Below are positions 1,637 to 42,443 of a stretch of 42,810 bases of DNA, piece by piece. How positions within the stretch are numbered: the stretch's first letter is position 1; each line of letters begins with the position of its first letter. Where the stretch lies: the IMG/VR virus record IMGVR_UViG_3300048929_000691; one strand, written 5' to 3'. This DNA is from a virus. The notes under the pieces were generated by a model, which was given only the letters and a program-made list of their open reading frames with translations, ran no database searches and had not been told where the DNA came from. A program made the translations under genes and the position numbers.

Positions 1637-2011
1637 ATGGCTCAAATAAATATAAAAGATGCAATAGTTAATGTAGTAGAAAAATATCTTAAAAGTTTTA
1701 GTAAATCATTAATCACTAGATTTTATACCAAAGAGCAGCTAATGGATGTATATGATAAGAAGGATATAATAAAAAATCTTTCTAAAAATAGTAATGACAA
1801 ATTATTATATAATGGCAGTATATTATGTACAGAAGACGATTTTATTAACATTAAAGCGTCGAACATCATAGTCGAAACAGACAATGGTGAAAAAACTCTC
1901 CAAGAAATTTTGGACTCACTTTCTGATTATTCTGACGCACCTAAAGCATATTGTGGAACTGCAGAATGTGGGTCAAGTTATTGCGGAGACATAGATTCTG
2001 AGGATGCATAA
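1637..2011 (+). CDS. Tail-associated hypothetical protein (N-terminus paralogous to previous gene)
   Basis: ATG1637 after GAGGTG RBS; NVVEKYLKSFSKSLITRFY matches NVVKKYLTSFSKSLVSRFY of the previous gene. Confidence 0.7.
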   Translation: MAQINIKDAIVNVVEKYLKSFSKSLITRFYTKEQLMDVYDKKDIIKNLSKNSNDKLLYNGSILCTEDDFINIKASNIIVETDNGEKTLQEILDSLSDYSDAPKAYCGTAECGSSYCGDIDSEDA

Positions 2012-2063
2012 AACTATGCTGAATATAAACGGAATCTAATTTTATAATTAAAGAGGTGATTTT

Positions 2064-2420
2064 ATGTCATATACAGCACTTACATGGGTTGATAGATCTA
2101 AAGACACACCTGGAACAAAGCTTAATGCTACAAATTTAAACCGTATTGAAAATGGAATTAAAGATCTTTATATTGCATTAGACACTATAACAAAGAAAGT
2201 TCCAACAGAAGCTCAACTTAATGCAATATCTAATTTTTCAAAGAGCGTAGGTGATTTACAAACAGGATTAGATCAATTGAAAACCGATTTTAATGCCCAT
2301 GTTCATTCAAATGAAGCTGGTGATACTACTGGTGGAGTTACAACTGATCCTACTGCTACTACTAGTACAACTGATTCTAGCAGCACTAACGGTCAAGATT
2401 CTAACAAAGCTGGAAATTAA
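2064..2420 (+). CDS. Phage tail/baseplate-associated small protein
   Basis: GAGGTG RBS; W-x-D...GTKLNATNLNRIENGI motif typical of N-termini of phage tail/fibre proteins. Confidence 0.6.
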   Translation: MSYTALTWVDRSKDTPGTKLNATNLNRIENGIKDLYIALDTITKKVPTEAQLNAISNFSKSVGDLQTGLDQLKTDFNAHVHSNEAGDTTGGVTTDPTATTSTTDSSSTNGQDSNKAGN

Positions 2421-2454
2421 ATCAACATTAACAATGTTAAGGCAAGAGTGTAAC

Positions 2455-2490
2455 ATAAGCAGTTGGAATTATCCAGCTGCTTATTCTTTT
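2455..2490 (+). terminator. Intrinsic terminator
   Basis: ATAAGCAGTTGGA-ATTA-TCCAGCTGCTTAT stem followed by TCTTTT. Confidence 0.65.
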
Positions 2491-2535
2491 GGCTAAGCCA
2501 CGTTTAAAAATATTTTAGAAAGAAGAGATAATAAT

Positions 2536-3021
2536 ATGTTAGATATAATTAATAATGCTATTTCAAACATTAACTTTGGTGAAGTAATAACAACAGTTGT
2601 CATTGCTGCATTAGGTACTTTAATTGCAAAAGTTAGACCTTATGTAAAAGATCTATTAGATAATCTTTTTCAATATGTTTTACTTCAAATTGAGTCTAGT
2701 GAATATGAGGATCAATTTAAAAAAGCTTGTGATATTTGGAAACTTGTAGATGAAAATTTCCGCATAGGTGCTGATATTACAAAGGAATTTGAAAATAAAG
2801 CTGATTATTTTAATAATCTTCTTTTGCAAAAGTTTCCTTCACTTACTCAAGGGGAAATAGATTATATAAGACAAGTAATTGCTGGAAATGAGAATTCAGT
2901 GAAAACAACTGTAGGTTCACAAACTCAAGCTGATAAATTACAAAAAGATGATAAATCAGCTGAAGCTGCTGAAATCGACGGAGTAAAAATTCAAACTGAG
3001 TCTGCATCTGTACAAGCTTAG
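2536..3021 (+). CDS. Putative holin
   Basis: Single N-terminal hydrophobic helix (VITTVVIAALGTLIA) directly upstream of the endolysin. Confidence 0.6.
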   Translation: MLDIINNAISNINFGEVITTVVIAALGTLIAKVRPYVKDLLDNLFQYVLLQIESSEYEDQFKKACDIWKLVDENFRIGADITKEFENKADYFNNLLLQKFPSLTQGEIDYIRQVIAGNENSVKTTVGSQTQADKLQKDDKSAEAAEIDGVKIQTESASVQA

Positions 3022-3047
3022 CAATAAAATTAAGGGGGGATTTTTAT

Positions 3048-4166
3048 ATGTCATTAATTACTGGAATAGATATTTCAAATAATAATGGAAATGTAGATAT
3101 AAATGGAGCCTATAATAGCGGAGCTGAGTATATTTACTTAAAGGCTACAGAAGGAAGAACTTTTAAAGACTCTTATATGGATGGATTTTATAATCAGTGT
3201 AAGGCTGTAGGTGCTAAATCAGGAGCTTATCATTTCCTAGTAAGCACAAGCGAGCCTGAAGATCAAGCTAAAAACTTTGCTGAAAAAATTCAAGGTTATG
3301 AATTTGAACTTATGCCTTGTTTAGATGTGGAAACAAATTTTAATAATCTTAATGATTATGTTCAAAGATTTGTAGCTGCATTTTCAATGTATTCAAACAA
3401 GGAATTATTACTTTATACTTATACAGGCTTTTTATCAAGCTTAAATAATACATCTTTAAGCATGTTTAGGAAAGCATGGATGGCTAATTATAACAATTGT
3501 GAAGATTTAGATAGTGTTGCAAGTGATGCATTAGCTTCAGCAGGTATTGAAATTGTTGGCCATCAGTATACAGAAAATGGCACTTTAGGCGCCTTTTCTG
3601 GAGATTTAAATGTTTTTACAGATGGTGTAATAAGTTTAGAATTTCAAACTTCTAAAGGTACTTGGAAGCTTGATTCTAAAGGCTGGTGGTTTGAATATGA
3701 AGATGGAACTTATCCTAAAAATTCTTGGGCTAAGCTTCCTATAAAAAATAATGATGCTGATAATGTTGCTTGGTTCTTATTTAATGAAAATGGGTATATG
3801 CTTTATTCTTGGCAGCAAAAAGATGGCAACTGGTATTACTTAGGTGGAAGCAATGATGGAGCTATGAAAACAGGCTGGGTATTTGATAGTAATTATAACA
3901 GATGGTTCTATTTTGATGACTCTGGCGCTATGCAGACAGGCTGGCAAAAAATCAATGAGAAATGGTACTACTTACAAGTAGATAATTTTACAGATTCCGT
4001 TACTAATACTTCCTATGTAAAAGGTGAAATGAGAACTGGCTGGATTAATTTAGATGGAAAAGATTATTTATTATACAGCACAGGTGAAATGGCACATGAT
4101 ACTGTAATATATGATTACACAATAGATTCAAGTGGAGTTGCAACTAAAAATACTTTAGAAAAATAA
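3048..4166 (+). CDS. Endolysin, GH25 muramidase with C-terminal choline/cell-wall-binding repeats
   Basis: GIDIS, KATEG, GAYHF, LDVE, HQYT and DLN motifs; repeated WYYL/MKTGW units. Confidence 0.92.
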   Translation: MSLITGIDISNNNGNVDINGAYNSGAEYIYLKATEGRTFKDSYMDGFYNQCKAVGAKSGAYHFLVSTSEPEDQAKNFAEKIQGYEFELMPCLDVETNFNNLNDYVQRFVAAFSMYSNKELLLYTYTGFLSSLNNTSLSMFRKAWMANYNNCEDLDSVASDALASAGIEIVGHQYTENGTLGAFSGDLNVFTDGVISLEFQTSKGTWKLDSKGWWFEYEDGTYPKNSWAKLPIKNNDADNVAWFLFNENGYMLYSWQQKDGNWYYLGGSNDGAMKTGWVFDSNYNRWFYFDDSGAMQTGWQKINEKWYYLQVDNFTDSVTNTSYVKGEMRTGWINLDGKDYLLYSTGEMAHDTVIYDYTIDSSGVATKNTLEK

Positions 4167-4184
4167 ATTCATATTTAATATTTA

Positions 4185-4213
4185 TTGCATAGTCGAATTC
4201 GACATGTTAAAAT
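4185..4213 (+). promoter_or_regulatory. SigA-type promoter with palindromic operator in its spacer
   Basis: TTGCAT-17 bp-TAAAAT with TG extension; the spacer contains perfect GTCGAATTCGAC (4192-4203). Confidence 0.7.
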
Positions 4214-4244
4214 AATATAAAGAGAAGTAGCTATCTAGTAGCTA

Positions 4245-4279
4245 CAAGGCAGCTAGAAAACCTCTAGCTGCCTTTTATT
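4245..4279 (+). terminator. Intrinsic terminator/attenuator
   Basis: AAGGCAGCTAGA-AAACC-TCTAGCTGCCTT followed by TTATT. Confidence 0.75.
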
Positions 4280-4298
4280 ATTCGAAAGGAGAATTATT

Positions 4299-6482
4299 TT
4301 GACTTTTTTAAATTTAGATACCATAAAAAATAGCATTATCGATAATGTAGTAGATACTTTAAGCAGTAATGCAAGAACTGAAAATGAAAAAGAAGCACTA
4401 AAACAGACCTTAACTTCCAAAATAAAAGCCAATACTTTAATATCAAATGCACCTTCTGGAGATATAACTATTGATGCAGATTCAATAAATAATGTAATGA
4501 ATAAATTATATATTGATCTTCTTACAACTTATGGGGTGTTAAATAATATAGGAGAAGAGTTATCAAAATATAATGTAAGTTACTCTTCCTATATAAACTA
4601 TGTGAATTCACGTATAAATGAAATCAGCGATGCTTTAGAAGCTTGCAGACACTCCTTAACAAGTATCTATATGCCTGCCTATCATATTGAAAGATTTAGA
4701 ACAGCAGATAGTTTTGATACAACAAGGAGTCTTCAAAAAACAAGGTATGATGGATATTTTCCAAGCTATTGTTACTGTAATTATGAAAATAAAGAGCATA
4801 GGCTTACCTTGCCCTTATTAAGGCAGGATAATTCCTTGCGCTATGATGACAAAGTTGAAACAGCATATATTACCCCTTTTTTCCAGCTTGGCAAAGGGTT
4901 TACTAATTTAAAAAATGACGAAACCAATATAGAAAACTGTTTAGATGATAGTGAAACTGACTTTTGGAATACAAGCATCCTTTCAGATAGTAAATTAGAG
5001 GTAAGTTTTATAGATAAAAAACCTAGTGTACTTTTTGCTGGAGATGGTTATTACTATGACATTGACAATGGGGCTGTATGTGAGCTTGAAATAAACTTTG
5101 AAAGTGTAAATACAGTAAATGAATTAGTATTAAATCCTTGCTGCAATTATCCAATTAGAATAGTTGCTGTAAGATATAAGCAAACAGATGATGAAGACGA
5201 GCCCCTTACAGAATTAGTATGGCCTGAGAATGAACAAAAAATGCTTCAAGATAAATTCACAAAATCACAAGTGAGTTTTAAATTCCCAGATATTTTATGT
5301 AAAAAAATATATATTTTATTTGTACAAGAGCATTATTTAAGAAAAACTTATTTGTACAATCCTCAGGATGTATACAAAAATTCTTTATGGTTTGATAGTA
5401 AAAATAGTGTTAAGCCAAAGGTTTTAGAAGCTGAATTTCAACCTACTTATGGCGATAGAGAGTTGAATTCGACCATATGGGACAATGTAAATGATAGGAT
5501 AGTAAAAAATGAAAATAAGGATCTTGCAGCCATTATAATAGGAGATGAAAAAGATAATAGAAAGGTCATTAAATATGATTATAACTATGGTTTTTACTAT
5601 ATAAGCTGCTATAACAATCATTATGACAGAGCAGGTTTTTATGTATCTAAAATGATTGATCTTGGTAATAACATAAGAACAATTAAGCTTTATACTGATG
5701 AAATTCATCAAAGAGATAGCTTGAATCATTATATTACTGACATTGAATATTATATAGCTGGTTCAGAAAATCCAACTATGGAGGACTGGCTCCCAATACT
5801 TCCTCAAGGAGTTACTGAAATCAAATCAGAACTTTTAGAAATTACTGGGGAAAATTATGCTTATTTGCGCTTCCAAACAGATACCATTTTAAATGTTATG
5901 AAGAATGGGGTTCCTATTAATTTAAAAAAGGATAATACTATAGTCTTTGAAAAAGATTGTTCTAAAGATTCTGATGGTCACTATTACGCAATTAGAATAA
6001 ATAATTACGATTTTGATGCTGTTTATAGTGTAAATTATGTCCCTATTGATGGTTCTAATATATTAGATTTAAGTCAAAAGCTAGCAACTTCCATTGAAAG
6101 TTTTGATGGCAGCAATAAGACCTTTTTTAAACTTAATGATGAACCTTATATAGATGACACAGATAACTACTGTAGTGTAAAACTTACTGATCTTAGTAAA
6201 AATACTACAGGTACAGAAATAGAGGTCAAAAATATAACAGAATCCGCAAATCAAAGCATCAGCTACAAGAATTTTATAGGTGATGGAACTTATCAATACT
6301 ATGTTTACAAGAACATAATATATTTTAATAAGCCTATTCCTAAAAATTATATAGTAGATATTTCCTATAGGCATTTGATTTCTAAATTTAGAATTAAAGC
6401 TATCTTTAGAAGAAATTCCTCAAAGGATGGATGGCTTACTCCAATTTTAAATGAGATAAAGTATGATATTGAAACTTATTAG
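4299..6482 (+). CDS. Large phage virion structural (baseplate-like) protein, paralogue 1
   Basis: AAGGAG RBS with TTG start; N-terminal coiled coil, GFYVSK motif and C-terminal TPILNEI shared with the next two ORFs. Confidence 0.65.
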   Translation: MTFLNLDTIKNSIIDNVVDTLSSNARTENEKEALKQTLTSKIKANTLISNAPSGDITIDADSINNVMNKLYIDLLTTYGVLNNIGEELSKYNVSYSSYINYVNSRINEISDALEACRHSLTSIYMPAYHIERFRTADSFDTTRSLQKTRYDGYFPSYCYCNYENKEHRLTLPLLRQDNSLRYDDKVETAYITPFFQLGKGFTNLKNDETNIENCLDDSETDFWNTSILSDSKLEVSFIDKKPSVLFAGDGYYYDIDNGAVCELEINFESVNTVNELVLNPCCNYPIRIVAVRYKQTDDEDEPLTELVWPENEQKMLQDKFTKSQVSFKFPDILCKKIYILFVQEHYLRKTYLYNPQDVYKNSLWFDSKNSVKPKVLEAEFQPTYGDRELNSTIWDNVNDRIVKNENKDLAAIIIGDEKDNRKVIKYDYNYGFYYISCYNNHYDRAGFYVSKMIDLGNNIRTIKLYTDEIHQRDSLNHYITDIEYYIAGSENPTMEDWLPILPQGVTEIKSELLEITGENYAYLRFQTDTILNVMKNGVPINLKKDNTIVFEKDCSKDSDGHYYAIRINNYDFDAVYSVNYVPIDGSNILDLSQKLATSIESFDGSNKTFFKLNDEPYIDDTDNYCSVKLTDLSKNTTGTEIEVKNITESANQSISYKNFIGDGTYQYYVYKNIIYFNKPIPKNYIVDISYRHLISKFRIKAIFRRNSSKDGWLTPILNEIKYDIETY

Positions 6483-6493
6483 GAGGTAAGAAA

Positions 6494-8296
6494 ATGAATG
6501 GATATGAGTATAGACAAGATAATGCTGCTTTAGATTCAAGACTTAAACAAGAAGTGGCAAAAATACAATTTAAATACCAAAATGGACAGATAAAAACCCA
6601 GACAGATTATGCTTATGAATTAAAAAATGCCATTTTAGAGTTCTATAAACAGCTTGGAAAACCTACTATGAAATTTATACCTGCAGCTTCAGTTCCTTTT
6701 TATGAGGAATATACAACTATGCTTGAAAATGCAATAAATGATATGAATACTGTAATACAAGGGTGTAGCAGCAATTATGAAACTTTAAATTCCAGCAAGC
6801 AGAAAACAGAAGACTCTATAGATATACTTGTAAATAGGATTGATCAGATATCTGCAACAACTGATTTTATAAAAAATAAAATTACTGCCATAAGAAAGGC
6901 TTCAGATATTATTATTTCAGATGATTTTAGTGATGGTACAGGCTATAAAGCACAGAATTCTTTTATTGATACCTCCTCAAATGCTTTAATGCTAGGAATA
7001 GTTAACAGCCAGTCGATTTCAGATAACAATCTAGATATAGAAATTCTAAATACCTCAAATGGATTTCCTGGAAACACTCATGAGGTATATAACACAGTTG
7101 GAACTATAAATAATAAGTTCACCTTTAAAGGGGAAAACAATACTCACATTAAGTTATCTGCTATAAAAGAAAATAATGTAAATACTAGTGCAGCATCTTC
7201 ATATACCTCTACAAACTGGTTTGAATTTGAAATGTATAATATTTCAGATTCTATTAAAGAAGACACCTCCATGATAGGTTTTTCCTATACTGAGGGAATA
7301 AGATGGGTAACAGATGATGACACTCTTTATTTAAATTTAAAGTTAACCTTACAATCAGAAAACAACTCTAATTACGTAGTAATAAAAGGTGCACCTAAAA
7401 CCAATGAAACTGCTAATCCTATATTACACAAGGTAATAGTTTCAGATGACTTGGGTCTACTTCAAATTATAGAATTAAATAGAGAGTTAGTTGGTACAAT
7501 AGTAATTCCATTTTCCAGTCAAAAGGTTAAATATGTGACATTAGAGCTTATTCAAACAGAATTTATCAGCACTCAAGTATGTAGGCAGTATGGAATAAAT
7601 ATCGATCCAACTAGGGTATCAAAATATGATAGTGATGATTTACAAGGCTATGTGGAGGTTGAAGCTCCACTTCAAAGTATTGAACTCTTAGGCCTTAAAT
7701 ATGATAAAAGAAACAGAAGCATAATCTATCCAACTACTGCTAATACAGAAAACTTTTTAGATGATGCCTATGTAAAAGCGCAGCTTTTTTATAACACTAT
7801 AAGCTCTGATGGAAACTTAATAAAAAGGGAACCTGTAAATGCCAATAGATACAGCATAGGAATAAGTGCAGTTGATGTTAGATATAGAAAATATGTAAAG
7901 GTTGGAACCTATATTTCTAAGACTTTTACTGCTTCTAGTCCAATAAAACAGCTAATATTTAATTCAGAAGATTATATTCCTAGTTCCTTTAATAATTATG
8001 TCCCTGCTACAGGAAATATAAATGACTTTATTAAATATTCCATAAGCTTTGATAATGGAGGCGAATGGCATCCTATATATCCACGGCATAAGGCTTCTAG
8101 CGGATCATGTACTATCATTGTAAATTCCGACTCAGCAGTATTAAACCGTAATCCAAACATCACTTACGTGGATATGATGACTTCACCAAGCAGCTTCATA
8201 ATAAAAATAGAGCTTTCAAGACCTGAAGACATTATTGATGAAACGCCAATAGTCTACAATTACAATTTAGATATAAGTGGGAAGGAGAGCTTTTAA
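6494..8296 (+). CDS. Large phage virion structural protein, paralogue 2
   Basis: AGGAGG RBS; GTYISK and C-terminal TPIVYNY motifs. Confidence 0.65.
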   Translation: MNGYEYRQDNAALDSRLKQEVAKIQFKYQNGQIKTQTDYAYELKNAILEFYKQLGKPTMKFIPAASVPFYEEYTTMLENAINDMNTVIQGCSSNYETLNSSKQKTEDSIDILVNRIDQISATTDFIKNKITAIRKASDIIISDDFSDGTGYKAQNSFIDTSSNALMLGIVNSQSISDNNLDIEILNTSNGFPGNTHEVYNTVGTINNKFTFKGENNTHIKLSAIKENNVNTSAASSYTSTNWFEFEMYNISDSIKEDTSMIGFSYTEGIRWVTDDDTLYLNLKLTLQSENNSNYVVIKGAPKTNETANPILHKVIVSDDLGLLQIIELNRELVGTIVIPFSSQKVKYVTLELIQTEFISTQVCRQYGINIDPTRVSKYDSDDLQGYVEVEAPLQSIELLGLKYDKRNRSIIYPTTANTENFLDDAYVKAQLFYNTISSDGNLIKREPVNANRYSIGISAVDVRYRKYVKVGTYISKTFTASSPIKQLIFNSEDYIPSSFNNYVPATGNINDFIKYSISFDNGGEWHPIYPRHKASSGSCTIIVNSDSAVLNRNPNITYVDMMTSPSSFIIKIELSRPEDIIDETPIVYNYNLDISGKESF

Positions 8297-8297
8297 T

Positions 8298-10715: not shown

Positions 10716-11556
10716 AATGGCTACAACTTTAACATATAACTATCCTGATAAGGATGATGCCGTTGCTTTAAATTGGACAACAACTGATGCAGCGGCAGAC
10801 CATTATAAGATTTACAGAAGAATCTTAGAAACAGATGCAACCTCTAATAAAATACAAGATCAAAATACTACTTCCTATTTAGATAATAGTGTGCTAGTAA
10901 CAAAAAATATGAAGGCTCCCCAAATATCAATAAATCTTCAAAGAGAATTTGGAAAGCTTAAAATATCCTTTGTAAATAATCCAGATAATATCAGAAATTA
11001 TGTGTATTCTGTTTATACCTATGATGTAAATGATAATTTGCTATCTGCTTCAAACCAGGTGCAGATATATATTAAAAAGGTTCCAGACAAATATTTCTAC
11101 CTAATTAAAAAAGCTGATATTCCATTAAGTAAGACAGATAAATTCACAGAAACAACAGTTAACTTTGCAGAATTCACTAATATGGACAACGGTAAATATA
11201 TAATTTATTTATATGCTCAGCTTGAAAGTACAAAAACAGATATTGTGAGTGCAAGATTTGTAATAGATAATACTATCTTTAAAAAAGAAGAGCATTTAGA
11301 TGTGCCAAATGCAGTAAGATACAACAATAGATATAGAGGCCCCCATGAGTCAAAGAAAAAAGACTTTGCCATAATGGAAATCAAAAATAATATAAATAAG
11401 TTAAAAAAGAGAGTTGCCTATTTACAAGACTACAAAAAAGGCTTTTTAGATAAGCCTGAAACCATTAATGTAGAGCTTACAAACTTACTAGAAACCATAG
11501 AAAGTAGCATTGAAGATATAAGAAAGGAATTAAAATATGAAAAACGTAATAATTAA
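10708..11556 (+). CDS. Phage structural protein with Fn3/Ig-like N-terminus
   Basis: VALNW...HYKIYR Fn3-like strand pattern; RYRGPHES motif followed by coiled coil. ATG10717 is an alternative start. Confidence 0.55.
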   Translation: MNKMATTLTYNYPDKDDAVALNWTTTDAAADHYKIYRRILETDATSNKIQDQNTTSYLDNSVLVTKNMKAPQISINLQREFGKLKISFVNNPDNIRNYVYSVYTYDVNDNLLSASNQVQIYIKKVPDKYFYLIKKADIPLSKTDKFTETTVNFAEFTNMDNGKYIIYLYAQLESTKTDIVSARFVIDNTIFKKEEHLDVPNAVRYNNRYRGPHESKKKDFAIMEIKNNINKLKKRVAYLQDYKKGFLDKPETINVELTNLLETIESSIEDIRKELKYEKRNN

Positions 11557-12773: not shown

Positions 12774-12801
12774 TTGTAATATTATTGTAATTTGCTATAA
12801 T
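12774..12801 (+). promoter_or_regulatory. SigA-type promoter
   Basis: TTGTAA-16 bp-TATAAT with TG extension. Confidence 0.55.
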
Positions 12802-12947
12802 TTATATATAAAGGATATTGGTTCTAAATATGTAAAAGGCTTATGGATTAACAGATTTTTTTATATAGTTTTTAGTCTATTTCGACTATAATCTAAAAAT
12901 ATTCATAAGTACTTTTACTAAATTACATTAAAGGCAGGCGATTAAAA

Positions 12948-13286
12948 GTGTCCGAAGACAGAATACTGAATATAATGAAAAATTTAAATTATTTATTAAG
13001 CACTCTAGAGCAAGTTTGTGCTCAAAAATTAATCAACAATGTTCCAAGCTCTGAATATGACAGTATTTACATCAATTTTGAGTTAAGCAAAAACTCAGAT
13101 ATAATATTTTCCGTATTCAATTCCAATACAAAATGTATTGTTAAAAAGATATATACTCTTCCTCAATTGTTAAAAAAATGTGCAGATATCTTTTCTGTTA
13201 TGAGTTTTATAGATGAAGACACTATAACTTTATACAAGAAATCAAAGGAACACATTTATAATACAAATACAATAATAAGTATATAA
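12948..13286 (+). CDS. Hypothetical protein
   Basis: 112-aa ORF, GTG start after AGGCAGG. Confidence 0.55.
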   Translation: MSEDRILNIMKNLNYLLSTLEQVCAQKLINNVPSSEYDSIYINFELSKNSDIIFSVFNSNTKCIVKKIYTLPQLLKKCADIFSVMSFIDEDTITLYKKSKEHIYNTNTIISI

Positions 13287-13350
13287 AGTTATGGTTGAAT
13301 GAATTGTGTAAGCAGATGATAGAATATAAATACAATAGTAACTATATAAA

Positions 13351-13734
13351 GTGGTGGAGAATAGTATGAATAAAGAATTTATTAAGATGCAGCAAGCAGC
13401 AGCAGAGAAAAAGCTGGTTACAAAAATTAAAGATAATATGCATAAGCATAAGACAACTAAAGAAATATTTGAAGAGGATAAGGAATGCTTCACTTCATGT
13501 CCTAGATACAATCCATGTCCTATATGCAGTAAATGTGAGAATAAGGCAAGCCATTTATATATTAAATGTGAACTTTGCCAGATACCAATGTGCACCCATA
13601 AATATACGGATAGACAGCACATGATAAAAAGAGAAAGCAATACTATACAAGTTTCAAGAGAAACTATTGATAAGCTAAAAATAATTGCAGCTAAGAGAGA
13701 GCAGGTGATAAACAATGAAAATAGCACTAGATAA
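13351..13734 (+). CDS. Cys-rich putative Zn-binding protein
   Basis: CFTSC...CPICSKC...CELC...C cluster. ATG13366 after GGAGA is the likely start. Confidence 0.65.
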   Translation: MVENSMNKEFIKMQQAAAEKKLVTKIKDNMHKHKTTKEIFEEDKECFTSCPRYNPCPICSKCENKASHLYIKCELCQIPMCTHKYTDRQHMIKRESNTIQVSRETIDKLKIIAAKREQVINNENSTR

Positions 13735-13996
13735 TAATATGAATGCTGAGGATTATACAAGAAATGGGCAGAACATCCCTAAAAAGCCTGAGCCTGGTCA
13801 GCCTATTATTTGTCAGTATTGCAACGAAATAATATATCCAAGTGAATTTTCAAAGGATTCTTTTCAAAGAAAATTTGAATTTAAATGGCATTTACATCCT
13901 TGGTGTAAAGAAGCTATGATGAATCAAGCTGATAGGGGAACTCCAGGGCTTATAGATGAAAGAAAAAGGGCTGCAAGACGCCTTGAAGAAGAATAA
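13715..13996 (+). CDS. Small putative Zn-finger protein
   Basis: CQYC...HPWC; GCAGGTG RBS; overlaps the previous gene. Confidence 0.65.
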   Translation: MKIALDNNMNAEDYTRNGQNIPKKPEPGQPIICQYCNEIIYPSEFSKDSFQRKFEFKWHLHPWCKEAMMNQADRGTPGLIDERKRAARRLEEE

Positions 13997-14133
13997 ATAA
14001 ATTCGGATACTACTGATAAAACTGCCACTTCTAAAAATTTAGTAAGAACAAGGCGGTTTGGAGAAAAGATCTAAGAAGAGAGGGAGAATAATGTTAGTCT
14101 TAATCCCATCACTAAATTATTCAGGTAGCTTTT

Positions 14134-15039
14134 ATGAGAAATAAACAATATGAAGTTGATTATAGCAAAGATTATCAAAGAGTACATGACTTAGTATATG
14201 AATATAAAAATGGTTCAATGGATGCTGCCGATAAATTATTGGAGTCCTTTGCAAAATTCTTGTCCAATTATGCAGTGTTAATAAAGTATGGTAAATATAA
14301 TTTAAATTACTATTCTGTAAGAAGCTTTATAAAGCTATTCATTGAAGATCCAAAAGATAGAAAATTATTAAATTCTCATTTTTACAATCAATATGCAGGG
14401 AAAAATGTAGTATTTTCAACAATTAATACAATCATGAATATTTTTCATGAGTCAAGCTCTGAAGATATAAAACAAGATTTGAAAATAATATTTTTTAATA
14501 TGTGTCAGAAATACAAAGATGTAAGGCCTAGTTTTCATACTTATATAGATAAAAATTTCCATTATTATGCCTATAGATACTGGGAGAAAACTATAAGAGA
14601 TCCCATTGGACGTGGAAGCTCTGTAAGTATTTCTACACCAATTAAATCAATTAAGTTTGTAGAAGATACCAATCTTACCTTTGCAGATATATTAGAAGAT
14701 GTACAATCAAAAGTCGAAAACGACTATACTTTAAATAAAATAACTGTATATTATGATATTAAAACTTCCTCCATACCAGTTGCTTACGGGGAAGAAAACC
14801 ATGATACATATAATAATACTTTTTTAAATACCAATTGGATAAATGGTATTACTTGCAGCACAGCCTTTAAGATTCTTACTCCTTTAGAGCGTAAAATCAT
14901 TAAATTATGGTATATAGATAATCTTACCGATAAGGAAATAGGTGATAAATTTGGCATCTGTAGAGGCAGCATAAATAAAAGAAGAAATATTGCAAAAACA
15001 AAGATAGGAGAATATTTGAAATATAGAAAAGTGGAATAA
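14134..15039 (+). CDS. Phage sigma-70-family RNA polymerase sigma factor
   Basis: Region-2-like EDIKQDL...F...Y..RPSFHTYI and region-4 HTH LTPLERKIIKLWY...TDKEIGDKFGICRGSINKRR. Confidence 0.75.
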   Translation: MRNKQYEVDYSKDYQRVHDLVYEYKNGSMDAADKLLESFAKFLSNYAVLIKYGKYNLNYYSVRSFIKLFIEDPKDRKLLNSHFYNQYAGKNVVFSTINTIMNIFHESSSEDIKQDLKIIFFNMCQKYKDVRPSFHTYIDKNFHYYAYRYWEKTIRDPIGRGSSVSISTPIKSIKFVEDTNLTFADILEDVQSKVENDYTLNKITVYYDIKTSSIPVAYGEENHDTYNNTFLNTNWINGITCSTAFKILTPLERKIIKLWYIDNLTDKEIGDKFGICRGSINKRRNIAKTKIGEYLKYRKVE

Positions 15040-16765: not shown

Positions 16766-16790
16766 AAAAAATCTAGCATAAGCTAGATTT
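16766..16790 (-). terminator. Terminator after PadR-like gene
   Basis: AAAATCTAGC-ATAA-GCTAGATTTT with A-run on + (U-run on -). Confidence 0.65.
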
Positions 16791-17134
16791 TAAGGTAAAA
16801 CTTTTGCAACATCTTTATAAAATTTAGATGTTTTGCTAAGTAATTTTTTATAATGTTCAGAATTAGAATTATAATAGTCTCTCCCTACAGGTGTTATTTC
16901 GTAATACTTCTTTTGGTTGTAATCATACATGTAATTGATATACCCATTTTTAATCATAGAATTAATTACAGGATAATAAGTTCCATGAGATATATCCCAT
17001 GTAATGTCAAAACGCTTTATTTCGTCTAGAACTTCTTTAAAATATACTTCTGAATCTTTTTTCATTATATATCCCAGTGTAAATAGTTCTAATAAATTGC
17101 CAGGCGTAATTTTGGTTATTTTTTTTTGCTCCAC
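16790..17134 (-). CDS. PadR-family winged-helix regulator
   Basis: ISHGTYYPVINSM..NGYI and KKYYEITPVGR motifs; GGAGGG RBS. Confidence 0.85.
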   Translation of the reverse strand: MEQKKITKITPGNLLELFTLGYIMKKDSEVYFKEVLDEIKRFDITWDISHGTYYPVINSMIKNGYINYMYDYNQKKYYEITPVGRDYYNSNSEHYKKLLSKTSKFYKDVAKVLP

Positions 17135-17551
17135 TTAAACAAGACCCTCCATTCCTTAGATTTAACTTCTACATTCTACATTTTTCTACCACGAATTCGA
17201 CCTACAATAAGTCATTAAATTATATACAAAATTAAATAAATATTTAAATTCATTTAATTTTATACCCTACCCCTTTTTACATACATTTTTAACTACTTTT
17301 AACTAAACCTTAGCATAGCTTACATTAATAATTAAGTCAATATACTCAAAATTTAATTATACTTAATAATTATATCATTTTTTTAATAGCAAAACCATTT
17401 AAAGAAAATTTGCCGTAAAATTAAATTTACGTTGCTATTCACTGAGATAATATTCACTTTATTTTCATGACATACGAAAACTTTAAAAAGATTCTCAGGA
17501 ATATACGAATATAAGAATAAGGAACATACCTAAAATAGGCGTTTAGAAGCC

Positions 17552-18555: not shown

Positions 18556-21540
18556 CTAATCTAATGTTTCCGTATGAGTGCTATTATACCAATCATAAAG
18601 CTTTTTAAAATCTATTGAAAAAGTATTAGCAGGAATCTCTTTACCATTTGCATCTTTTTTCGTATCATCTCTACCATCTATTGCAAAAGTTATTCTATTA
18701 AAATTAAAATTGCACCTAAGAGGTAAGTAATTGCCATCTACTTTCTCTTCTGATATAAGTGCTATAGCCCAATCAGCATCTCTATCCTTCCCTTTATATC
18801 TTTGAACACCTAATCCTACACTTGTCTTATTAGTTGCACCATATAAATATCCACCACATTTTGCATCAGAAGCAGTACTATAGAATTTTACTCCACAGAA
18901 AGTTTCTCCTCCATTAGGATTATCTTTCTCATAATTTTGAGGTGCCCCATTTTTTAAGGCATTACCATCATATTGAATCCACAAGGATCCATTCATAGTA
19001 TCTCCAGTTTTCTTTACGAAATTTCCCAATGCTGCATTTAATGCACCTACTAAGGCTTCAAGCAATTTTTCTATTGTATCTAGAGTAGTCCATACATCTT
19101 TAATTTCATTCCATAAATCCCCAACTTCCTTTTTCAGTGCATCCCATAAATCGTCTATTTGATCTTGAATATTTCCTCCAATATTTTTCAATTGATAAAG
19201 TTCATCTATTAATACATCACTTTCTTCAACGCAGGAAGTGCCTATAGTACGACTGCAATTTTCTATTGTCCTATCTTTAGTAGGAACACTTGTTATAAGA
19301 ACCCTTGAACCTTTTCTTCTTGGATCTTCTCCAGTATCTGGATTTGTATCTGTTGGCTCACAATGTCTTACCATATTATCATCAGCAGCATAAACTTTTC
19401 CTTTTTTATCTGTAAGCATTACTTTATTTGCATTATCCATGCCTTGATCTAAGGCTACATAATTCTTAAAGTTCTTCCAGATTTGATCTGCTTCTAAGGT
19501 CAATTCCCAAATTCTTCTTTCATAGTCATAATGCCTGTGTCGAACACTTGCATATCTATTATCATATATAGATTTTGGTCTTATATAACGTGTTGCCGCT
19601 GGCATTTCTCCTGTTGGTACACATTCATTAAAGTTATACATAAGGCATGCACTTGACATATATGGCTGAATTCTTACTTCTGTTTTTTCATCTATTGCCA
19701 TATATAATTCAAATATATGTGTTACCACTTGAAGTCCATCAAGAGGCTCAACTATTGTATTTACATGATATAATCTCATAATATCAATATAAGTTTGATA
19801 TTTATCCCCTTGATCTGCATCATTATTCTTTGGGAATGGCTTCCTCATTCTCTTTGTTTCATTATATGGTTCAGCCTCTTGAATAGTTTTTGGTGGCTTT
19901 TTGTAATCACCATATCCATGTATACTATCCTCTAAATCTATTCTTGATTTTGGACCATTGTGTACTTCTGTAAGAAGTCTAGGATCAACAGGTGTTATCT
20001 CAATGCTAGCCTCAGAAGTGACTCCCTTTTTCAAGTTATCTTTAACAGCATCAACATCATCTTTCAATTCAGTGAGTCCATCTTTTCCATCATCTAGTTT
20101 AATATTTATAAAGCTAGAATCTTTATCTGAAGACTTTCCACCCTCACCATCAGATGAGCTCGAACCTCCTGGTCCTGAACCTCCACTTGTCCCCGAATCT
20201 CCATCTGCCATAGCAAGACCTAAATCCTTCAAACGTGCAAGTTCACTTTCTAAAGCTAGTTTATAATCATTTCCATAAGCTAACTTTAGCTCCCTTAACC
20301 TTTTAGCTTTTTCCACATTAGGTTTAGTAAAATACAAGTTTGCCATTGCACTTTTAATACCACCAGATAATTCATTTGAAACATCATTTTGATAATTTTT
20401 TGTTCCTGCATTACCGGTATAGCTCCAACTATATTGCGGAAAATTAGGATAACTTGCAGAATATCCATCAATTACTGCACCCGAAGCATCTTTATCTCCA
20501 TTTTCATCATCTGTATCCCAATTTCTTTTATCATCCTTGGTATAACCTTTGTTTAAATTAGGGTCCATATCCTCATAACTTGGGGTAGTATAGACATCTT
20601 TTTCTGATAAAAATGGCAAGGTTTCATCATGTAAACTTACATAAAAATATTTTCTTATGCCATTCCAAGCATCATTCATTGTAGTATCTTTTGTATATAA
20701 TGGATCTTCAAATAATCCAACATGGAAATCAAAAGTAGTTGCATTATCATTTTTAAGTAAAGTAACGCAGCCCCTTAAAGCTCCATTGTATACACCCTCT
20801 GTTAAAAGGTTAGTTGTATGAAATACATCAGGGTCGTATTCGTCTAAGAATGGTGGAGTATTTGCTTTAAATTGATCTCTTATATCCATTGTTGCAAGAG
20901 CTTGATTTAAAGAATTTATATTTTTTGCAGGAATAGTTACATTTCCTCCTGGAACTACAACATCTTTAGGATCTACTCCAAAGACACCATTTCCACTATA
21001 TTCAAATACGCCTCCATAAGCTGGTTTTCCCTCATGAGTATAGTCTAAATCTGATCTATTCCCCATAATCCTTCTTGTAGTAAAGGTAGCTATCTTCACC
21101 CAATTCTTTTCATCAGTTGTTTTAGGATCTTTATTAACTTGATGAAGAAAATGATGATAACCATACCTATCTTTAAATTCAGTAGCATGTCTACCATCAA
21201 GTAAATCAGCATTTAGTCCTGAATTTGGACCATCATTTGTTTCATTCCATATTTTATAATCATTAAAAGTAATGGCAGGAACTGCGCCACTATCATCTGC
21301 TGTACATACAAAGTTTAGCAAATGTCTATCAATAGCAAAATTACCCCGAGCCTCAGTTGCTTTAAACCTTAAAGTAAAATTAGCATCCTCTCCATCTGAC
21401 TCTTGAATATCTCCTCCAAATTTAATAGCCATTAAAGCTCCGCTATTATCAAAACTATCGCGTAGCAATAAATTATTTGTAAGTACCTTTGATGTTTGTT
21501 CTTCTTGTAATATAGTGCTGTTATCAGCCACAATATTCAC
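18556..21540 (-). CDS. Tail-fibre-like virion protein
   Basis: NDGPNSGLNADLLDGRHATEF and FVKKTGDTMNGSL fibre motifs, coiled coil, G/S linker. GTG21531 may be the true start. Confidence 0.65.
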   Translation of the reverse strand: MNIVADNSTILQEEQTSKVLTNNLLLRDSFDNSGALMAIKFGGDIQESDGEDANFTLRFKATEARGNFAIDRHLLNFVCTADDSGAVPAITFNDYKIWNETNDGPNSGLNADLLDGRHATEFKDRYGYHHFLHQVNKDPKTTDEKNWVKIATFTTRRIMGNRSDLDYTHEGKPAYGGVFEYSGNGVFGVDPKDVVVPGGNVTIPAKNINSLNQALATMDIRDQFKANTPPFLDEYDPDVFHTTNLLTEGVYNGALRGCVTLLKNDNATTFDFHVGLFEDPLYTKDTTMNDAWNGIRKYFYVSLHDETLPFLSEKDVYTTPSYEDMDPNLNKGYTKDDKRNWDTDDENGDKDASGAVIDGYSASYPNFPQYSWSYTGNAGTKNYQNDVSNELSGGIKSAMANLYFTKPNVEKAKRLRELKLAYGNDYKLALESELARLKDLGLAMADGDSGTSGGSGPGGSSSSDGEGGKSSDKDSSFINIKLDDGKDGLTELKDDVDAVKDNLKKGVTSEASIEITPVDPRLLTEVHNGPKSRIDLEDSIHGYGDYKKPPKTIQEAEPYNETKRMRKPFPKNNDADQGDKYQTYIDIMRLYHVNTIVEPLDGLQVVTHIFELYMAIDEKTEVRIQPYMSSACLMYNFNECVPTGEMPAATRYIRPKSIYDNRYASVRHRHYDYERRIWELTLEADQIWKNFKNYVALDQGMDNANKVMLTDKKGKVYAADDNMVRHCEPTDTNPDTGEDPRRKGSRVLITSVPTKDRTIENCSRTIGTSCVEESDVLIDELYQLKNIGGNIQDQIDDLWDALKKEVGDLWNEIKDVWTTLDTIEKLLEALVGALNAALGNFVKKTGDTMNGSLWIQYDGNALKNGAPQNYEKDNPNGGETFCGVKFYSTASDAKCGGYLYGATNKTSVGLGVQRYKGKDRDADWAIALISEEKVDGNYLPLRCNFNFNRITFAIDGRDDTKKDANGKEIPANTFSIDFKKLYDWYNSTHTETLD

Positions 21541-21973: not shown

Positions 21974-22660
21974 ACACACTTTTTAGTAAAGCTATTTTTA
22001 CTTGTTTTATCAAAATTCAAACTAGATTTATTTTATTTTTGAATATAATTCTCTCTCATAATAAATATATCCCTATATAATAATTCAGCTTTCACAATGT
22101 AATATTTTTTCCTTTTTTGTAAATAATATAGGGTGATAATTTTGTTTTTTTGAAATTTATAATATTAAATTAAATAAATAATTAAAAATATTTATTCATT
22201 TTGTTGAAATATGGAATGTTTTACTGTATTTTTTAAATTAACATATATTACAAAATAAAATAAGCATCACAAAACAATTTATTTTTTTGCTATTCTGTGA
22301 TACTTATTTATATATTTAGCTGCTATATTTATAGAAAGAGAGATCATTAATATTATGTGCTTACTTAATAGGAGTTTAATGCGTTTAAATTTATGGATAG
22401 AATACATAATTAAATATTAGCAGCATAAATTCAATTTTTGTGGGAGATGAAAGCCAAAGAACATATTATTAATACATTTTCTTTAGCTTTCAAGGTATAT
22501 TATAGATAACGAATAAAAATGGATGAGATTCAACGTTTCTATAGAGTTTAAAATTGAAAAAACTATGTGTCGAAATCGACTTTAAACTTTAAAAACTTCA
22601 TCATCTATACTTATAGGGACACGGTGCCCGTTGATGGGCTTTATGGTGTATTGCATATTT

Positions 22661-22689
22661 ATTATAACACTTTTATTTTTGTATTACAA
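22661..22689 (-). promoter_or_regulatory. SigA-type promoter firing into an ORF-free region
   Basis: Minus strand TTGTAA-17 bp-TATAAT with TG extension. Confidence 0.65.
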
Positions 22690-22710
22690 TAACATTTTAT
22701 ATATTTTTTT

Positions 22711-27618: not shown

Positions 27619-28530
27619 TTAATAAGATATGCCTATACCATCATCAATAATATTTTTATTGTCCATACTTTTTATAATGTCTTCAATTTCAATTAATGTG
27701 CTATTAACCACTTCTTTGTAATAAGCTTTTTTCTCTATATTAAAAATATCCATTTCATCTTTAACAGTACCTACTACAGCTATATCATTAACTTCTTGGC
27801 TAACACCAGTACCTTCATTTTTTGAAATACTTTTATTAGCACTATTTGTTTTAACTCTATTTCTATTCCCTGAAGACATATTTTTTTCGACGTCGATTTC
27901 GACTTTTTGCTCATGATTAAGTTTAGCTATTTTCTTTTCTTTCTCTATTGTAACACTTTTTTTGCTGTTTTTAACTAATTTTTCTTCATTTTTTCTTTTT
28001 TTACTTTGAGCTTTCTTTTCATTCTCTTCAACTATTTCATGTGACTCAGTCACTTTAAATACTTTATCATGTTCCACTGACTTACAAAGCTCTTGGGAAG
28101 TAGAGGCTTCTTTTAAATCAATTAGTTTTTTTTCTTCAGAGAATTCCAAAGATTTATTGAAATTGTCTATATCACTTAACTCAGTTTCAACCTTTTTATT
28201 CTGCTTCAAAATCATTAAGATTAACTCTTCCTTTGATATGCCTATCAGCTTTTCAGCTTCTTTACTACACTCTAGGCATATTCCATTTTCATTTACCTCT
28301 AAAGCTTCCCTTTTACATACATTGCATATATGAACTTCACTTAAATCTTCCTCAGTAACATTCCTCCTGCAGGTAAAACAATAATTAATTTCCCTTATTT
28401 CTTCTACTTCCTCATAACCTTTAAAGTACTCTGTTATTTTTCCATTAACAATTTTAGCAGCTCTTTTTTCAATTTTTTTAACTATTACTCCAAAGTTACT
28501 TTGACCACATACTTTACAGATTCTGCACAT
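27619..28530 (-). CDS. Zn-ribbon protein with charged low-complexity tail
   Basis: CKVC, CFTC, CNVC and CLEC pairs; AAGGAGG RBS. Confidence 0.7.
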   Translation of the reverse strand: MCRICKVCGQSNFGVIVKKIEKRAAKIVNGKITEYFKGYEEVEEIREINYCFTCRRNVTEEDLSEVHICNVCKREALEVNENGICLECSKEAEKLIGISKEELILMILKQNKKVETELSDIDNFNKSLEFSEEKKLIDLKEASTSQELCKSVEHDKVFKVTESHEIVEENEKKAQSKKRKNEEKLVKNSKKSVTIEKEKKIAKLNHEQKVEIDVEKNMSSGNRNRVKTNSANKSISKNEGTGVSQEVNDIAVVGTVKDEMDIFNIEKKAYYKEVVNSTLIEIEDIIKSMDNKNIIDDGIGISY

Positions 28531-39975: not shown

Positions 39976-40494
39976 CTATTGTTTTTCTTTATTTTCTGTT
40001 TCAACCTTTGAATTATCTTCTTTTTCAATATCTTGAATATTAGATACAAGCATTCTCCAAATTATATATTCTCCAGCTTGTGCAAGAGCCATCATCATTC
40101 TTCTTACAGAAAGATCTTCTTTATCATAATTTTCATCGACAATCTTACCATCTTTTATTAATGGAAGCATTGATGGAATTATCTTTTCTAATGCAATTTT
40201 TTGAGCTGCATCAATTTCTTTCTTAAAGAATTCTTCATTTTCACATAATGCTTGAGATATGTATACAAGCGCTTTTGACAAAGCTATATATCCTTGTCTT
40301 ACAGTAAATTCATTATCAGCATCAAGTTCATCACTAATAACCTTTAAGATTTTCTCTAAAGCTGGAGCCATAATCTCATTATCTTTTTTTGAAATATCTT
40401 GTACCTCCTCAAATACTTTATCTTTTTTAATAGTTTTTGCATTTTTATTTTTCAATTTAATTCCTTCTTTCCTGGCAGATAAAATCTCTGCCAT
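39976..40494 (-). CDS. Hypothetical protein
   Basis: 172-aa helical ORF, co-oriented. Confidence 0.65.
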   Translation of the reverse strand: MAEILSARKEGIKLKNKNAKTIKKDKVFEEVQDISKKDNEIMAPALEKILKVISDELDADNEFTVRQGYIALSKALVYISQALCENEEFFKKEIDAAQKIALEKIIPSMLPLIKDGKIVDENYDKEDLSVRRMMMALAQAGEYIIWRMLVSNIQDIEKEDNSKVETENKEKQ

Positions 40495-40512
40495 ATTTCT
40501 ATATATAATTAA

Positions 40513-40863
40513 TTAAAAATTAATTTTCTCCACATTTTTATTTTTAAAATATTCAATTATGGGTACTAACTGCATTGATATTATCTTGGTCCTTTCAGTT
40601 TCTGCATATATACTTTTCAACATTTTTTCCAACTTATAGGAACCATTTAAATTAACTATTAAATACTCAACACTTAAATGTGTTAATACAAAATATTCTA
40701 TTTTATTTACATTAAGCTGTTTCTTCAATTCAATTGCAATATAGTTATCTCCTACTATTGCATAACCATCCTTTAATAAAGCTTCATAATATTTCCTAGA
40801 TTTTTCAACAATTAAATTCAAGACATCCCTTTTAAAATCTCTCGTAGTTTTTCCTCCTTGCAT
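40513..40863 (-). CDS. Hypothetical protein
   Basis: 116-aa ORF; a GTCGA box lies about 30 bp upstream. Confidence 0.55.
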   Translation of the reverse strand: MQGGKTTRDFKRDVLNLIVEKSRKYYEALLKDGYAIVGDNYIAIELKKQLNVNKIEYFVLTHLSVEYLIVNLNGSYKLEKMLKSIYAETERTKIISMQLVPIIEYFKNKNVEKINF

Positions 40864-41109
40864 ACCTTATGATGTCAACAATTAATTCTATAGTCTAAAT
40901 CGACTTATTATTGCATTGCTATTCTCTTTATATATTACAGCTATTAATTTAAATTTGCTGCATGAACTTTTAAAAATCACTTAAAGTTCTTTATTTATAT
41001 ATAAATTTTAATTAATATTGTAGAGCCCCCTCCAATAAATTTTGAAAGAATTTATTCATTAATTGAACATTGATAATTGGCAATTAGAACATATATAACT
41101 AACCTTTTA

Positions 41110-41784
41110 TTATCTATATAATCTATCATATTCAAAAACTAATTCATCCCCTATTTTATCAATAGTCTTATACCATTTAGAATCGGCACTGTAGTATTTA
41201 TTAACTTTACTTGTGCTCCCTCCACTATAATAACAAGCCCCAGGTGTTAAATAATAGGTTCTAAGCTGCCTTGCCAAATCAATTATACATTCATATTTTG
41301 AAGCATATACAGTTCCTTTTGATGAATCAAATTGAACATCCATACCTGTAATATTGTTATTCCCATTATTAGCTCTCAAGCTTTCATCCCACCCAGACTC
41401 GGCAGCTGCTATTGCAACTAGAGCAAAGGCATTTACCTTATACTGCCTTTCTGCATCAACAAAAGCATCTGAAAGCTTTAATAAATTTGCATGATGTGAA
41501 GTATTAAGTACATTTTCCATCTCTTTATGGGTGATTCCACTTGGAATTCCTATATCATAGCTATTAAACCCAACCCGTGCTCTACGCTCTTTTTCTTCCT
41601 GCTGCATTTCTACAACTTCAATTAAACTTTCATTTACTCTAATCAATGACATATCTGCTAAGTGATTATTGATTTTTTCCTTGGCTGCACATTTGTAATC
41701 AAAATTGCTGCTTCCACTACAGATTCCTAAATTTATTAAGAAAACAGAACATAAACATAGTGGTAATATTTTTGTTATTACCAT
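41110..41784 (-). CDS. GH73 glucosaminidase-domain peptidoglycan hydrolase
   Basis: NAFALVAIAAAESGW, NNITG and YYSADSKW motifs; N-terminal signal/anchor. Confidence 0.85.
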   Translation of the reverse strand: MVITKILPLCLCSVFLINLGICSGSSNFDYKCAAKEKINNHLADMSLIRVNESLIEVVEMQQEEKERRARVGFNSYDIGIPSGITHKEMENVLNTSHHANLLKLSDAFVDAERQYKVNAFALVAIAAAESGWDESLRANNGNNNITGMDVQFDSSKGTVYASKYECIIDLARQLRTYYLTPGACYYSGGSTSKVNKYYSADSKWYKTIDKIGDELVFEYDRLYR

Positions 41785-41879
41785 TTAATTCCCCCTTCTA
41801 ATATAGCCTAACTATTGCCATTTTTTCAATACCTTTTTAAGTCGAAAACGACTTAAAGCTGTTAATAATTTTTCTAATT

Positions 41880-42314
41880 TTAACAGCATAAATGCTTAGG
41901 ATCAATTAAGTTTACTTCTGCATTGTATTTAGAAAACACAAGTTCTCTATTATAGATATCCTGCTTATTAGCAATATGTAAAGAATAACTTCCAGTTTGT
42001 ATCTTCTCTACTGCTATGTCCTGCAAGACTATTCCACCAAACAATAACACTTCCTCAAGAAATTTAATTTTGTCATTATCAGTAAGGAACTCAAAAATAT
42101 CTCCCATATTTTCCACATGAAATTTAAATAAAATATCTTTTCTTTTCAGGCTATACACAACATAAAAGTTACATTTCTCAATTTTATTAGATTTTTTATA
42201 ATATCTTTTGCTGCATTTAAAAATATAAAAATCTCCAACAGAAGCTTTAAATTCTAAATACAATAAAATATTACATGCTCGCTCTTTATTACTAATATTA
42301 ACCATTTCCTTCAT
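41880..42314 (-). CDS. Hypothetical protein
   Basis: GGGGGA RBS, 144 aa. Confidence 0.6.
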   Translation of the reverse strand: MKEMVNISNKERACNILLYLEFKASVGDFYIFKCSKRYYKKSNKIEKCNFYVVYSLKRKDILFKFHVENMGDIFEFLTDNDKIKFLEEVLLFGGIVLQDIAVEKIQTGSYSLHIANKQDIYNRELVFSKYNAEVNLIDPKHLCC

Positions 42315-42443
42315 GGTAATTCCCCCATAGTCAAAAGTAGTACAATACTATGTTACCACATTTTGGTCGTAATCGAAATAGACTCTTAACATTTTTTTGT
42401 AAAATTACTAAAAAGTTTTCTTTAGGGCTTATTTTTCTAGTTT

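Follow-up and report, generated by a model that had tools for sequence, protein, structure and literature searches.

We analysed a 42,810-nucleotide stretch of viral DNA (IMG/VR record IMGVR_UViG_3300048929_000691; this whole stretch is called the window below) that carries many copies of a short palindrome, GTCGA-N2-TCGAC, here called the dyad. Over most of its length the window is 93-99% (approximately 95%) identical to positions 91.9-132.9 kb of Csp_135p, the circular 136,188-bp megaplasmid of Clostridium saccharoperbutylacetonicum N1-4(HMT) (NC_020292.1). The dyad is a real and element-specific site that is conserved, that is selected at the level of the DNA and that is enriched between genes. 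Judged from the sequence comparisons described below, we give roughly even odds (a probability of about 0.5) to the reading that the dyads are operators to which a single regulator would bind as a symmetric dimer, probably repressing by promoter occlusion and as a roadblock.

Occurrence of the dyad

The consensus derived from 32 sites is a 12- to 14-bp palindrome extending to A-GTCGAWWTCGAC-T, and in all copies the two halves are inverted, abutting and at a fixed spacing. Three perfect dyads were observed in the window compared to 0.00 expected, and none was found in shuffled sequences; when up to two mismatches were allowed, there were 15 copies compared to 0.97 expected, with 4 as the largest number in any shuffle. 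On the whole of Csp_135p, GTCGA-N2-TCGAC was by a wide margin the most over-represented dyad of its class, with an observed/expected ratio of approximately 1,200. The host strain genome (G001, 6.7 Mb in total, with Csp_135p as its contig C2) contains 17 copies with no more than one mismatch, and all 17 are on the 136-kb plasmid and none on the 6.5-Mb chromosome. The half-site GTCGAA is scarce throughout this genome (431 copies, 22 of them on the plasmid), its frequency on the plasmid is no higher than its use in dyads explains, and GTCGAT is approximately as frequent as a half-site. Since 27 of the 37 plasmid half-sites belong to a dyad, the enrichment resides in the pairing. Avoidance of the dyad by the chromosome was considered and set aside, because with so rare a half-site the chromosome would be expected to hold only about 0.02 dyads, and their absence from it calls for no further cause.

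These counts agree with an earlier reading of the window made from the sequence alone (the sequence-only reading), which had listed 15 copies, had placed the expected number of perfect copies below 0.01 and had found none in the interval from 28 to 40.8 kb. All 15 positions and their mismatch counts were reproduced, and no copy was found between 27904 and 40892. The scan of the host chromosome that it had proposed gave the element-specific distribution described above, and its statement that the dyad is neither a LexA box, nor parS, nor cre was borne out by direct comparison: neither the LexA box CGAAC-N4-GTTCG nor cre (WTGNAANCGNWNNCW) matches the 32-site consensus, and Firmicute parS, TGTTNCACGTGAAACA, is unrelated to GTCGAWWTCGAC.

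Among more distant relatives, the dyad was not found on the first 140 kb of contig C3 of genome G144 or on metagenome contig L054. The Bacillus jumbo phage 0305phi8-36 has five one-mismatch copies and no perfect copy compared to approximately 1.5 expected from base composition, which is too weak for use. A scan of IMG/VR for AGTCGAAATCGACT gave only single matches per contig and no other virus with many copies, and no description of the dyad motif or of Csp_135p regulation was found in the literature.

Selection on the dyad as DNA

Between the window and Csp_135p, none of 180 motif positions had changed compared to 62 of 1,203 flanking positions (P = 3e-4). Csp_135p was also compared to a more distant relative, the metagenome-assembled genome G305, four contigs of which are 75-88% identical to the plasmid. 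At orthologous sites, 3 of 144 motif positions and 196 of 996 flanking positions differed (P = 1.4e-9), and the same was true of the intragenic sites alone, for which the sequence-only reading had suggested a conservation check (2 of 96 versus 101 of 640; P = 5e-5). At three intergenic sites the dyad was intact in G305 despite insertions or deletions in the flanks, and at two sites the position of the mismatch differed between the plasmid and G305, each version still having one mismatch only. Metagenome contigs encoding a 727-aa virion protein 82-94% identical to that of the element have retained both the promoter copy and the copy within that gene. The codons that make up the intragenic dyads are rare ones: GTC accounts for 5.5% of Val, GAC for 12.7% of Asp, ATC for 5.8% of Ile and TTC for 14.8% of Phe codons. 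The proteome has seven V[DE][IF]D peptides, of which five are encoded as GTC...GAC with rare codons; two perfect copies were seen compared to approximately 0.003 expected. Single mismatches were never compensated on the opposite arm, and therefore it is the identity of the bases that is kept and not their pairing; a reading of the dyad as an RNA hairpin, whose stem would be only 4-5 bp long, was rejected on the same ground. Taken together, these sequence comparisons indicate that the dyad is under purifying selection as DNA, also within genes, and the codon-embedded copies provide a clear example of selection on a DNA site inside coding sequence.

The above-described results also bear on whether the copies could be products of chance, of coding or of paralogy, for which we see next to no likelihood. 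Two of the intragenic copies (Csp_135p 73237 and 83801) do lie within paralogous genes, and 8 of the 11 intragenic copies are in frame 0. Yet shuffling produced no perfect copy, the codons used are rare, the dyad persists where its flanks have diverged and the chromosome has none; this explanation is already refuted.

The element that carries the dyads

The window encodes a tail-collar protein, a GH25 lysin with cell-wall-binding repeats, large virion proteins, DnaE, GroES, a PadR-like protein and a divergent sigma-70 family protein, and the structural genes of the element form a 100-kb co-directional block. The 727-aa virion protein of Csp_135p is 27% identical to ORF171 of phage 0305phi8-36, a similarity by which the element is distantly related to that phage. 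Csp_135p also encodes a type Ib parA. Given phage genes and a type Ib parA on one plasmid, its gene content identifies the element as a phage-plasmid rather than an integrative and conjugative element.

Position of the copies

The copies in the window, together with the promoter that contains the first perfect dyad, are as follows (dyads are listed without a strand).

4185..4213, + strand: predicted sigma-A-type promoter TTGCAT-17-TAAAAT, read from the sequence, upstream of a five-gene virion-protein operon (4299-12766)
4192..4203: perfect dyad, GTCGAATTCGAC, within the 17-bp spacer of the promoter 4185-4213; invariant in five relatives except for the central W
5462..5473: one-mismatch dyad in the 727-aa virion protein gene, frame 2, with a rare TCG codon; identical in five relatives
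12875..12886: one-mismatch dyad abutting TATAAT, approximately 75 nt downstream of a strong conserved extended -10 promoter (12774-12801)
14713..14724: dyad with one mismatch, in frame 0 within the sigma-like gene
17190..17201: dyad with two mismatches, reading GTCGAATTCGTG on the - strand, which lies 55 nt ahead of the padR-like gene and covers its predicted -35 region
20833..20844: two-mismatch dyad in a 994-aa gene; unchanged in G305 within a region of 72% identity
21869..21880: intergenic dyad with one mismatch, in the 1.17 kb that precede the 994-aa gene; one half-site retained in G305
22569..22580: perfect dyad approximately 85 nt downstream of a conserved extended -10 promoter (22689..22661, - strand)
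27886..27903: perfect dyad with a third abutting half-site (TTCGAC-GTCGAT-TTCGAC) in the gene of a 303-aa Cys-rich protein, frame 0, encoding VEID with rare codons
40893..40904: one-mismatch dyad that directly adjoins a conserved TATAGA/TATAAA and precedes the start of gene 40513-40863 (- strand) by 29 nt
41841..41852: one-mismatch dyad 56 nt before gene 41110-41784 (- strand) and 11 nt upstream of a predicted -35, TTGAAA
42366..42383: three half-sites, degenerate and abutting, lying over the predicted core promoter of gene 41880-42314, the first of the leftward block
1871..1882: two-mismatch intragenic copy with an extra GTCGAA 13 nt upstream; a weak site, conserved in G305
2968..2979: two-mismatch intragenic copy of uncertain status, without an orthologous alignment in G305

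Nine of the 15 copies in the window are intergenic compared to 15.3% of the DNA being non-coding (binomial P = 9e-5), as the sequence-only reading had counted. Also upheld were its placements of single copies: in the spacer of the promoter 4185-4213, against the TATAAT at 12875, and before padR and the genes starting at 40863, 41784 and 42314 (dyads 17190, 40893, 41841 and 42366/42372, respectively). Its claim that the motif marks promoters across the element was overstated. For the best 17 copies on the whole plasmid, 6 are intergenic compared to 11% non-coding DNA and 11 are within genes, and in the structural block the motif is missing from most of the DNA stretches between genes.

Individual sites illustrate how closely the dyad has been kept. 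The copy at 5462 is identical also in a relative whose homologue of the 727-aa protein has 82% amino-acid identity, and the promoter 4185-4213 is conserved in G305 and in metagenome contigs L051-L053. The dyad at 12875, upstream of the operon 12948-15039, is intact in G305 though its flanks carry insertions or deletions, and the dyad at 17190 is identical there, both deviating bases included. At 41841, G305 carries a different one-mismatch version at the same place. Near the dyad at 40893 a TTGACA is not conserved, unlike the TATA(G/A)A.

A possible role of the dyad as a -35 mimic (TCGACA) or another fixed promoter part was rejected: -10-like hexamers at 16-19 nt were found in 10 of 40 cases compared to a background of 20.5%, without a common offset. 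Because the dyads share no common register to a -10 and are missing from most intergenic regions of the structural block, the dyad is not itself a promoter class.

A proposed operator set and its candidate regulators

If the dyads are operators, A-GTCGAWWTCGAC-T would be recognised by one symmetric dimeric protein regulating transcription of the phage-plasmid, with approximately 17-20 such operators on the element. The intergenic ones lie within or beside predicted core promoters, which serve padR, three early genes and the virion and sigma operons, or they follow strong extended -10 promoters at a distance of 70-85 nt; their occupancy would block initiation or elongation. Protein bound at the intragenic copies in the 100-kb structural block would add further roadblocks or form a reservoir, and the net effect would be to keep the lytic genes silent in the plasmid state. 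The promoter at 4185-4213 has an ideal 17-bp spacer and good hexamers, and a protein bound there should therefore occlude RNA polymerase and not help it. The sequence-only reading had proposed that an element-encoded dimeric protein controls structural, sigma and early genes together. Common control is in keeping with a site that is selected, element-specific and overlapping predicted promoter cores; the binder itself may be encoded by the element or by the host.

Two loci in the window encode candidate regulators.

16790..17134, - strand: PadR-family winged-helix protein; a candidate binder, as no other dimeric DNA-binding regulator is recognisable in the non-structural region
12948..15039, + strand: operon encoding a 112-aa protein, two Cys-rich (zinc-finger-like) proteins and the divergent sigma-70 family protein

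The PadR-like and sigma-like proteins are the only recognised DNA-binding proteins of the non-structural region, the latter having weak similarity to SigB, SigF and SigG. Further candidates, read by eye, are the two Cys-rich proteins of the sigma operon (13351-13996), the 303-aa protein with its four CxxC pairs and a 145-aa protein (39494-39931) with a helix-turn-helix-like stretch and, on Csp_135p, a 125-aa partner of ParA and a 148-aa protein, both with C-termini resembling ribbon-helix-helix (RHH) motifs. The AlphaFold model of the 145-aa protein had a pLDDT (predicted local distance difference test score) of 64 and no Foldseek match, and that of a 116-aa protein had a pLDDT of 41. PadR homologues with 30-38% identity in other Clostridium genomes had no such dyad upstream, a result uninformative as to the binder, and no PadR homologues were found in the phage collection.

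Several observations count against the operator reading. The position of the sites relative to promoters is not uniform, there being no consistent -10 offset among them; the 11 intragenic sites of the 17 are compatible also with an architectural role; and most intergenic regions of the structural block have no dyad. Typical PadR operators, ATGT-N8-ACAT, are wider than the dyad, and searches with Pfam, PHROGs, NCBIfam and the ESM Atlas together with two AlphaFold models gave no new DNA-binding candidate.

The possible regulon is of interest since phage-plasmids are common, whereas regulatory circuits have been worked out for few of them, P1 and N15 being examples. Its candidate members, linked by one short dyad, are the early genes, the phage sigma operon and the virion operon of an uncharacterised 136-kb Clostridium element with the atypical jumbo phage 0305phi8-36 as a relative. 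With no dyad in 6.5 Mb of host DNA, one oligonucleotide pull-down should suffice to identify the regulator, and a plasmid-cured strain of this industrial butanol producer (Gu et al. 2019, cited in PMC6491355) exists as a clean control.

Alternative explanations

The dyads could instead be architectural or segregation sites which, in the manner of parS, matS, SlmA sites or the N15 centromere, organise, tether or partition the replicon with only secondary effects on transcription, a possibility that we regard as unlikely. The sites are dispersed over most of the element, most of them are intragenic and yet selected, and in addition to a ParA ATPase the element encodes its small partner of 125 aa, the C-terminus of which resembles an RHH motif by eye, reading as strand-helix-helix, while Pfam gave no match; N15, RK2 KorB and pSM19035 omega provide precedents. 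On the other hand, a six-frame search for ParB_N (PF02195) gave two chromosomal matches and none on the plasmid at E <= 1, and no dyad lies less than 14 kb from parA, the region from Csp_135p 132421 through the origin to 14849 having none with up to two mismatches. The repeats that an omega- or ParG-like partner has at the parA promoter are not dyads. What lies directly upstream of parA is an array of GTNAC repeats (Csp_135p 135963-136081, phased at 12/24 bp), and such phased arrays, found at other loci too, look like, and are likely to be, centromere or iteron repeats, for which they are better candidates than the dyad. Intergenic enrichment with promoter overlap would also be unexpected for a purely architectural site. 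The parS-like role raised by the sequence-only reading thus becomes less likely for want of ParB_N and of a dyad near parA, where the GTNAC arrays stand instead; for the intragenic copies an organising role may hold.

Slightly more doubtful is that the dyads are high-affinity sites for Spo0A~P of the host, through which the phage-plasmid would be shut down or re-programmed at host sporulation, as phi29 is via 0A boxes. In phi29, six consensus 0A boxes repress early promoters, and by way of such boxes the phage is silenced when its host cell sporulates (PMC2731898). Positions 2-7 of the 0A box TGTCGAA are identical to the half-site GTCGAA, a match that the sequence-only reading had missed, and this half-site includes G2, C4 and G5, which Spo0A contacts specifically (PMC3485338). 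At the equivalent positions of the dyad half-sites, G is found in 58 of 64, C in 61 of 64 and G in 55 of 64, in agreement with the contacts of the core TGNCGAA; in addition, the host carries spo0A and the element its sigma factor with weak SigB/F/G similarity. Against these points, the base at position 1 is T in only 8 of the 64 half-sites and A in 47 of them, GTCGAT half-sites are roughly as frequent as GTCGAA, the plasmid shows no enrichment in orphan single boxes and no 0A cores were found within 600 bp upstream of the host spo0A. Known paired Spo0A boxes are arranged in tandem, in the same direction. The dyad halves are inverted and abutting, whereas known Spo0A sites consist of two boxes separated by 3 bp (PMC2731898). 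In its fullest form, which we hold to be a shade less probable still, the dyad would be an inverted pair of 0A cores, giving approximately 18 Spo0A sites in promoters and, via rare codons, in genes, and the element would be silenced or switched at sporulation. If true, silencing at the commitment to sporulation would secure carriage of the element into the spore. We think it quite improbable that the dyad is the loading or recognition site of a modifier of elongating RNA polymerase (Q-like or RfaH-ops-like) or of a late activator and not a repressor site. The lambda PR' promoter has its Q-binding element between the -35 and -10 and the tR' terminator downstream, and the dyad at 4192 likewise lies between -35 and -10 with a strong leader terminator downstream; for a structural block that runs in one direction over 100 kb, antitermination would be of benefit. 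In P2 and P4, dyads are bound by small late activators of the zinc-finger type, and two Cys-rich proteins are encoded here beside the sigma gene. Nevertheless, the Q-type layout is present only at 4185-4282 and not at the other 16 copies of the dyad, no register to promoters is shared by the 17 sites, a palindrome in a good 17-bp spacer fits occlusion better than activation and none of the proteins scanned was recognised as Q or as NusG-like. For 0305phi8-36, a 21-bp motif was proposed as a promoter for a phage RNA polymerase (PMC2147016). The dyad was rejected as such a promoter, there being no RdRP- or YonO-like gene on the plasmid and no polymerase signature in the 994-aa protein.

Other features of the element

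The transcript from the virion-operon promoter would begin with a structured leader.

4227..4282, + strand: leader with two hairpins, the second of which (4246-4274, a 12-bp stem followed by a U-run) lies between the promoter and the gene start at 4299

The second hairpin has a free energy of -29.5 kcal/mol (z of -6.1) and by these predicted values is a strong intrinsic terminator. In five relatives the leader is almost invariant, the stems being invariant and the loop variable. As read from this arrangement, either the late operon would need antitermination or the promoter 4185-4213 would make an RNA of approximately 60 nt.

The region at 21541-22710 (- strand) is a 1.17-kb non-coding region with the conserved extended -10 promoter at 22689..22661, and its hairpin at 22449-22491 shows compensatory C>T and G>A changes in G305. 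No Rfam match was found for the region, which could give rise to a non-coding RNA or have a regulatory or origin function. At 42459-42484 there is a long palindrome of A and T only, TATATATAGTAT-TT-ATACTATATATA, which is conserved in G305 and placed between the early leftward promoter and GTNAC repeats. Arrays of GTNAC (mostly GTAAC or GTTAC) with a phase of 12 or 24 bp occur in the window at 28657-28766 and approximately 42500-42810, and in Csp_135p at 907-1009, 3603-3723, 5773-5881 and 135963-136081; one of the arrays is inside the gene of the ParA partner and encodes Val-Thr repeats. Outside the window, the hairpin AAGTGG-N6-CCACTT is present in three tandem copies approximately 130 bp apart at Csp_135p 6692, 6822 and 6950.

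An insertion sequence at approximately 32855-34468 is 99% identical to positions 4393694-4395307 of the host chromosome (G001:C1) and is not at the corresponding position in Csp_135p. A repeat of approximately 300 bp at 36178-36481 looks like an element of the miniature inverted-repeat transposable type inserted into the plasmid; the host chromosome has at least 45 copies of it that are 84-94% identical. The 224-aa glucosaminidase-like open reading frame at 41110-41784 corresponds to two annotated frames of 133 aa and 77 aa in Csp_135p (131149-131823), which PHROGs keeps as separate families; one of the two elements probably has a frameshift or a stop here.

Comparison with known systems

The operator set proposed here resembles in function the dispersed operators of other replicons. 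The C1 operators of the phage-plasmid P1 are many and dispersed over the prophage; each is an asymmetric 17-mer to which the known repressor binds as a monomer. As in P1, one operator sequence recurs on a plasmid prophage at many dispersed sites over the promoters of unrelated operons, here 17 sites on 136 kb, but the site is a 12- to 14-bp palindrome, most copies are intragenic and there is no sequence relationship. On RK2 and other IncP plasmids, KorA binds a 12-bp palindrome, GTTTAGCTAAAC, and KorB a 13-bp operator, OB, with 12 sites, some of them far from promoters. The likeness lies in short perfect palindromes, 7-12 per replicon, some in promoters and some remote, that serve global co-regulation; the differences are that KorB is a ParB homologue whereas Csp_135p has no ParB_N match, that the sequences differ and that the element is a Firmicute phage-plasmid. 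CcpA at cre and other Firmicute repressors roadblock transcription from sites inside genes. Their palindromic operators in coding sequence or leaders, which stop elongating RNA polymerase, are like the role suggested for the intragenic dyads, but the cre consensus is not matched and the dyad regulon is confined to one mobile element.

The dispersed N15 centromeres and the heptad sites of pSM19035 omega are bound by partition proteins. They are similar to the dyad in that partition sites double as operators spread over a plasmid or prophage, and the 14-bp dyad can be read as two inverted heptads; they differ in that no dyad is found at the parA promoter, which has the separate GTNAC array family. 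The half-site matches six of the seven bases of the 0A box, including all that are contacted, and here too a phage of a spore-former has sites at early and late promoters (phi29, PMC2731898; Clostridia, PMC3485338), but the flanking base is A and not T and the halves are inverted and abutting compared to two boxes 3 bp apart. What appears to be new is a candidate global operator set on a phage-plasmid with unusually clear selection on the DNA inside genes, its putative function being of a type known from P1 C1 and RK2 KorA/KorB.

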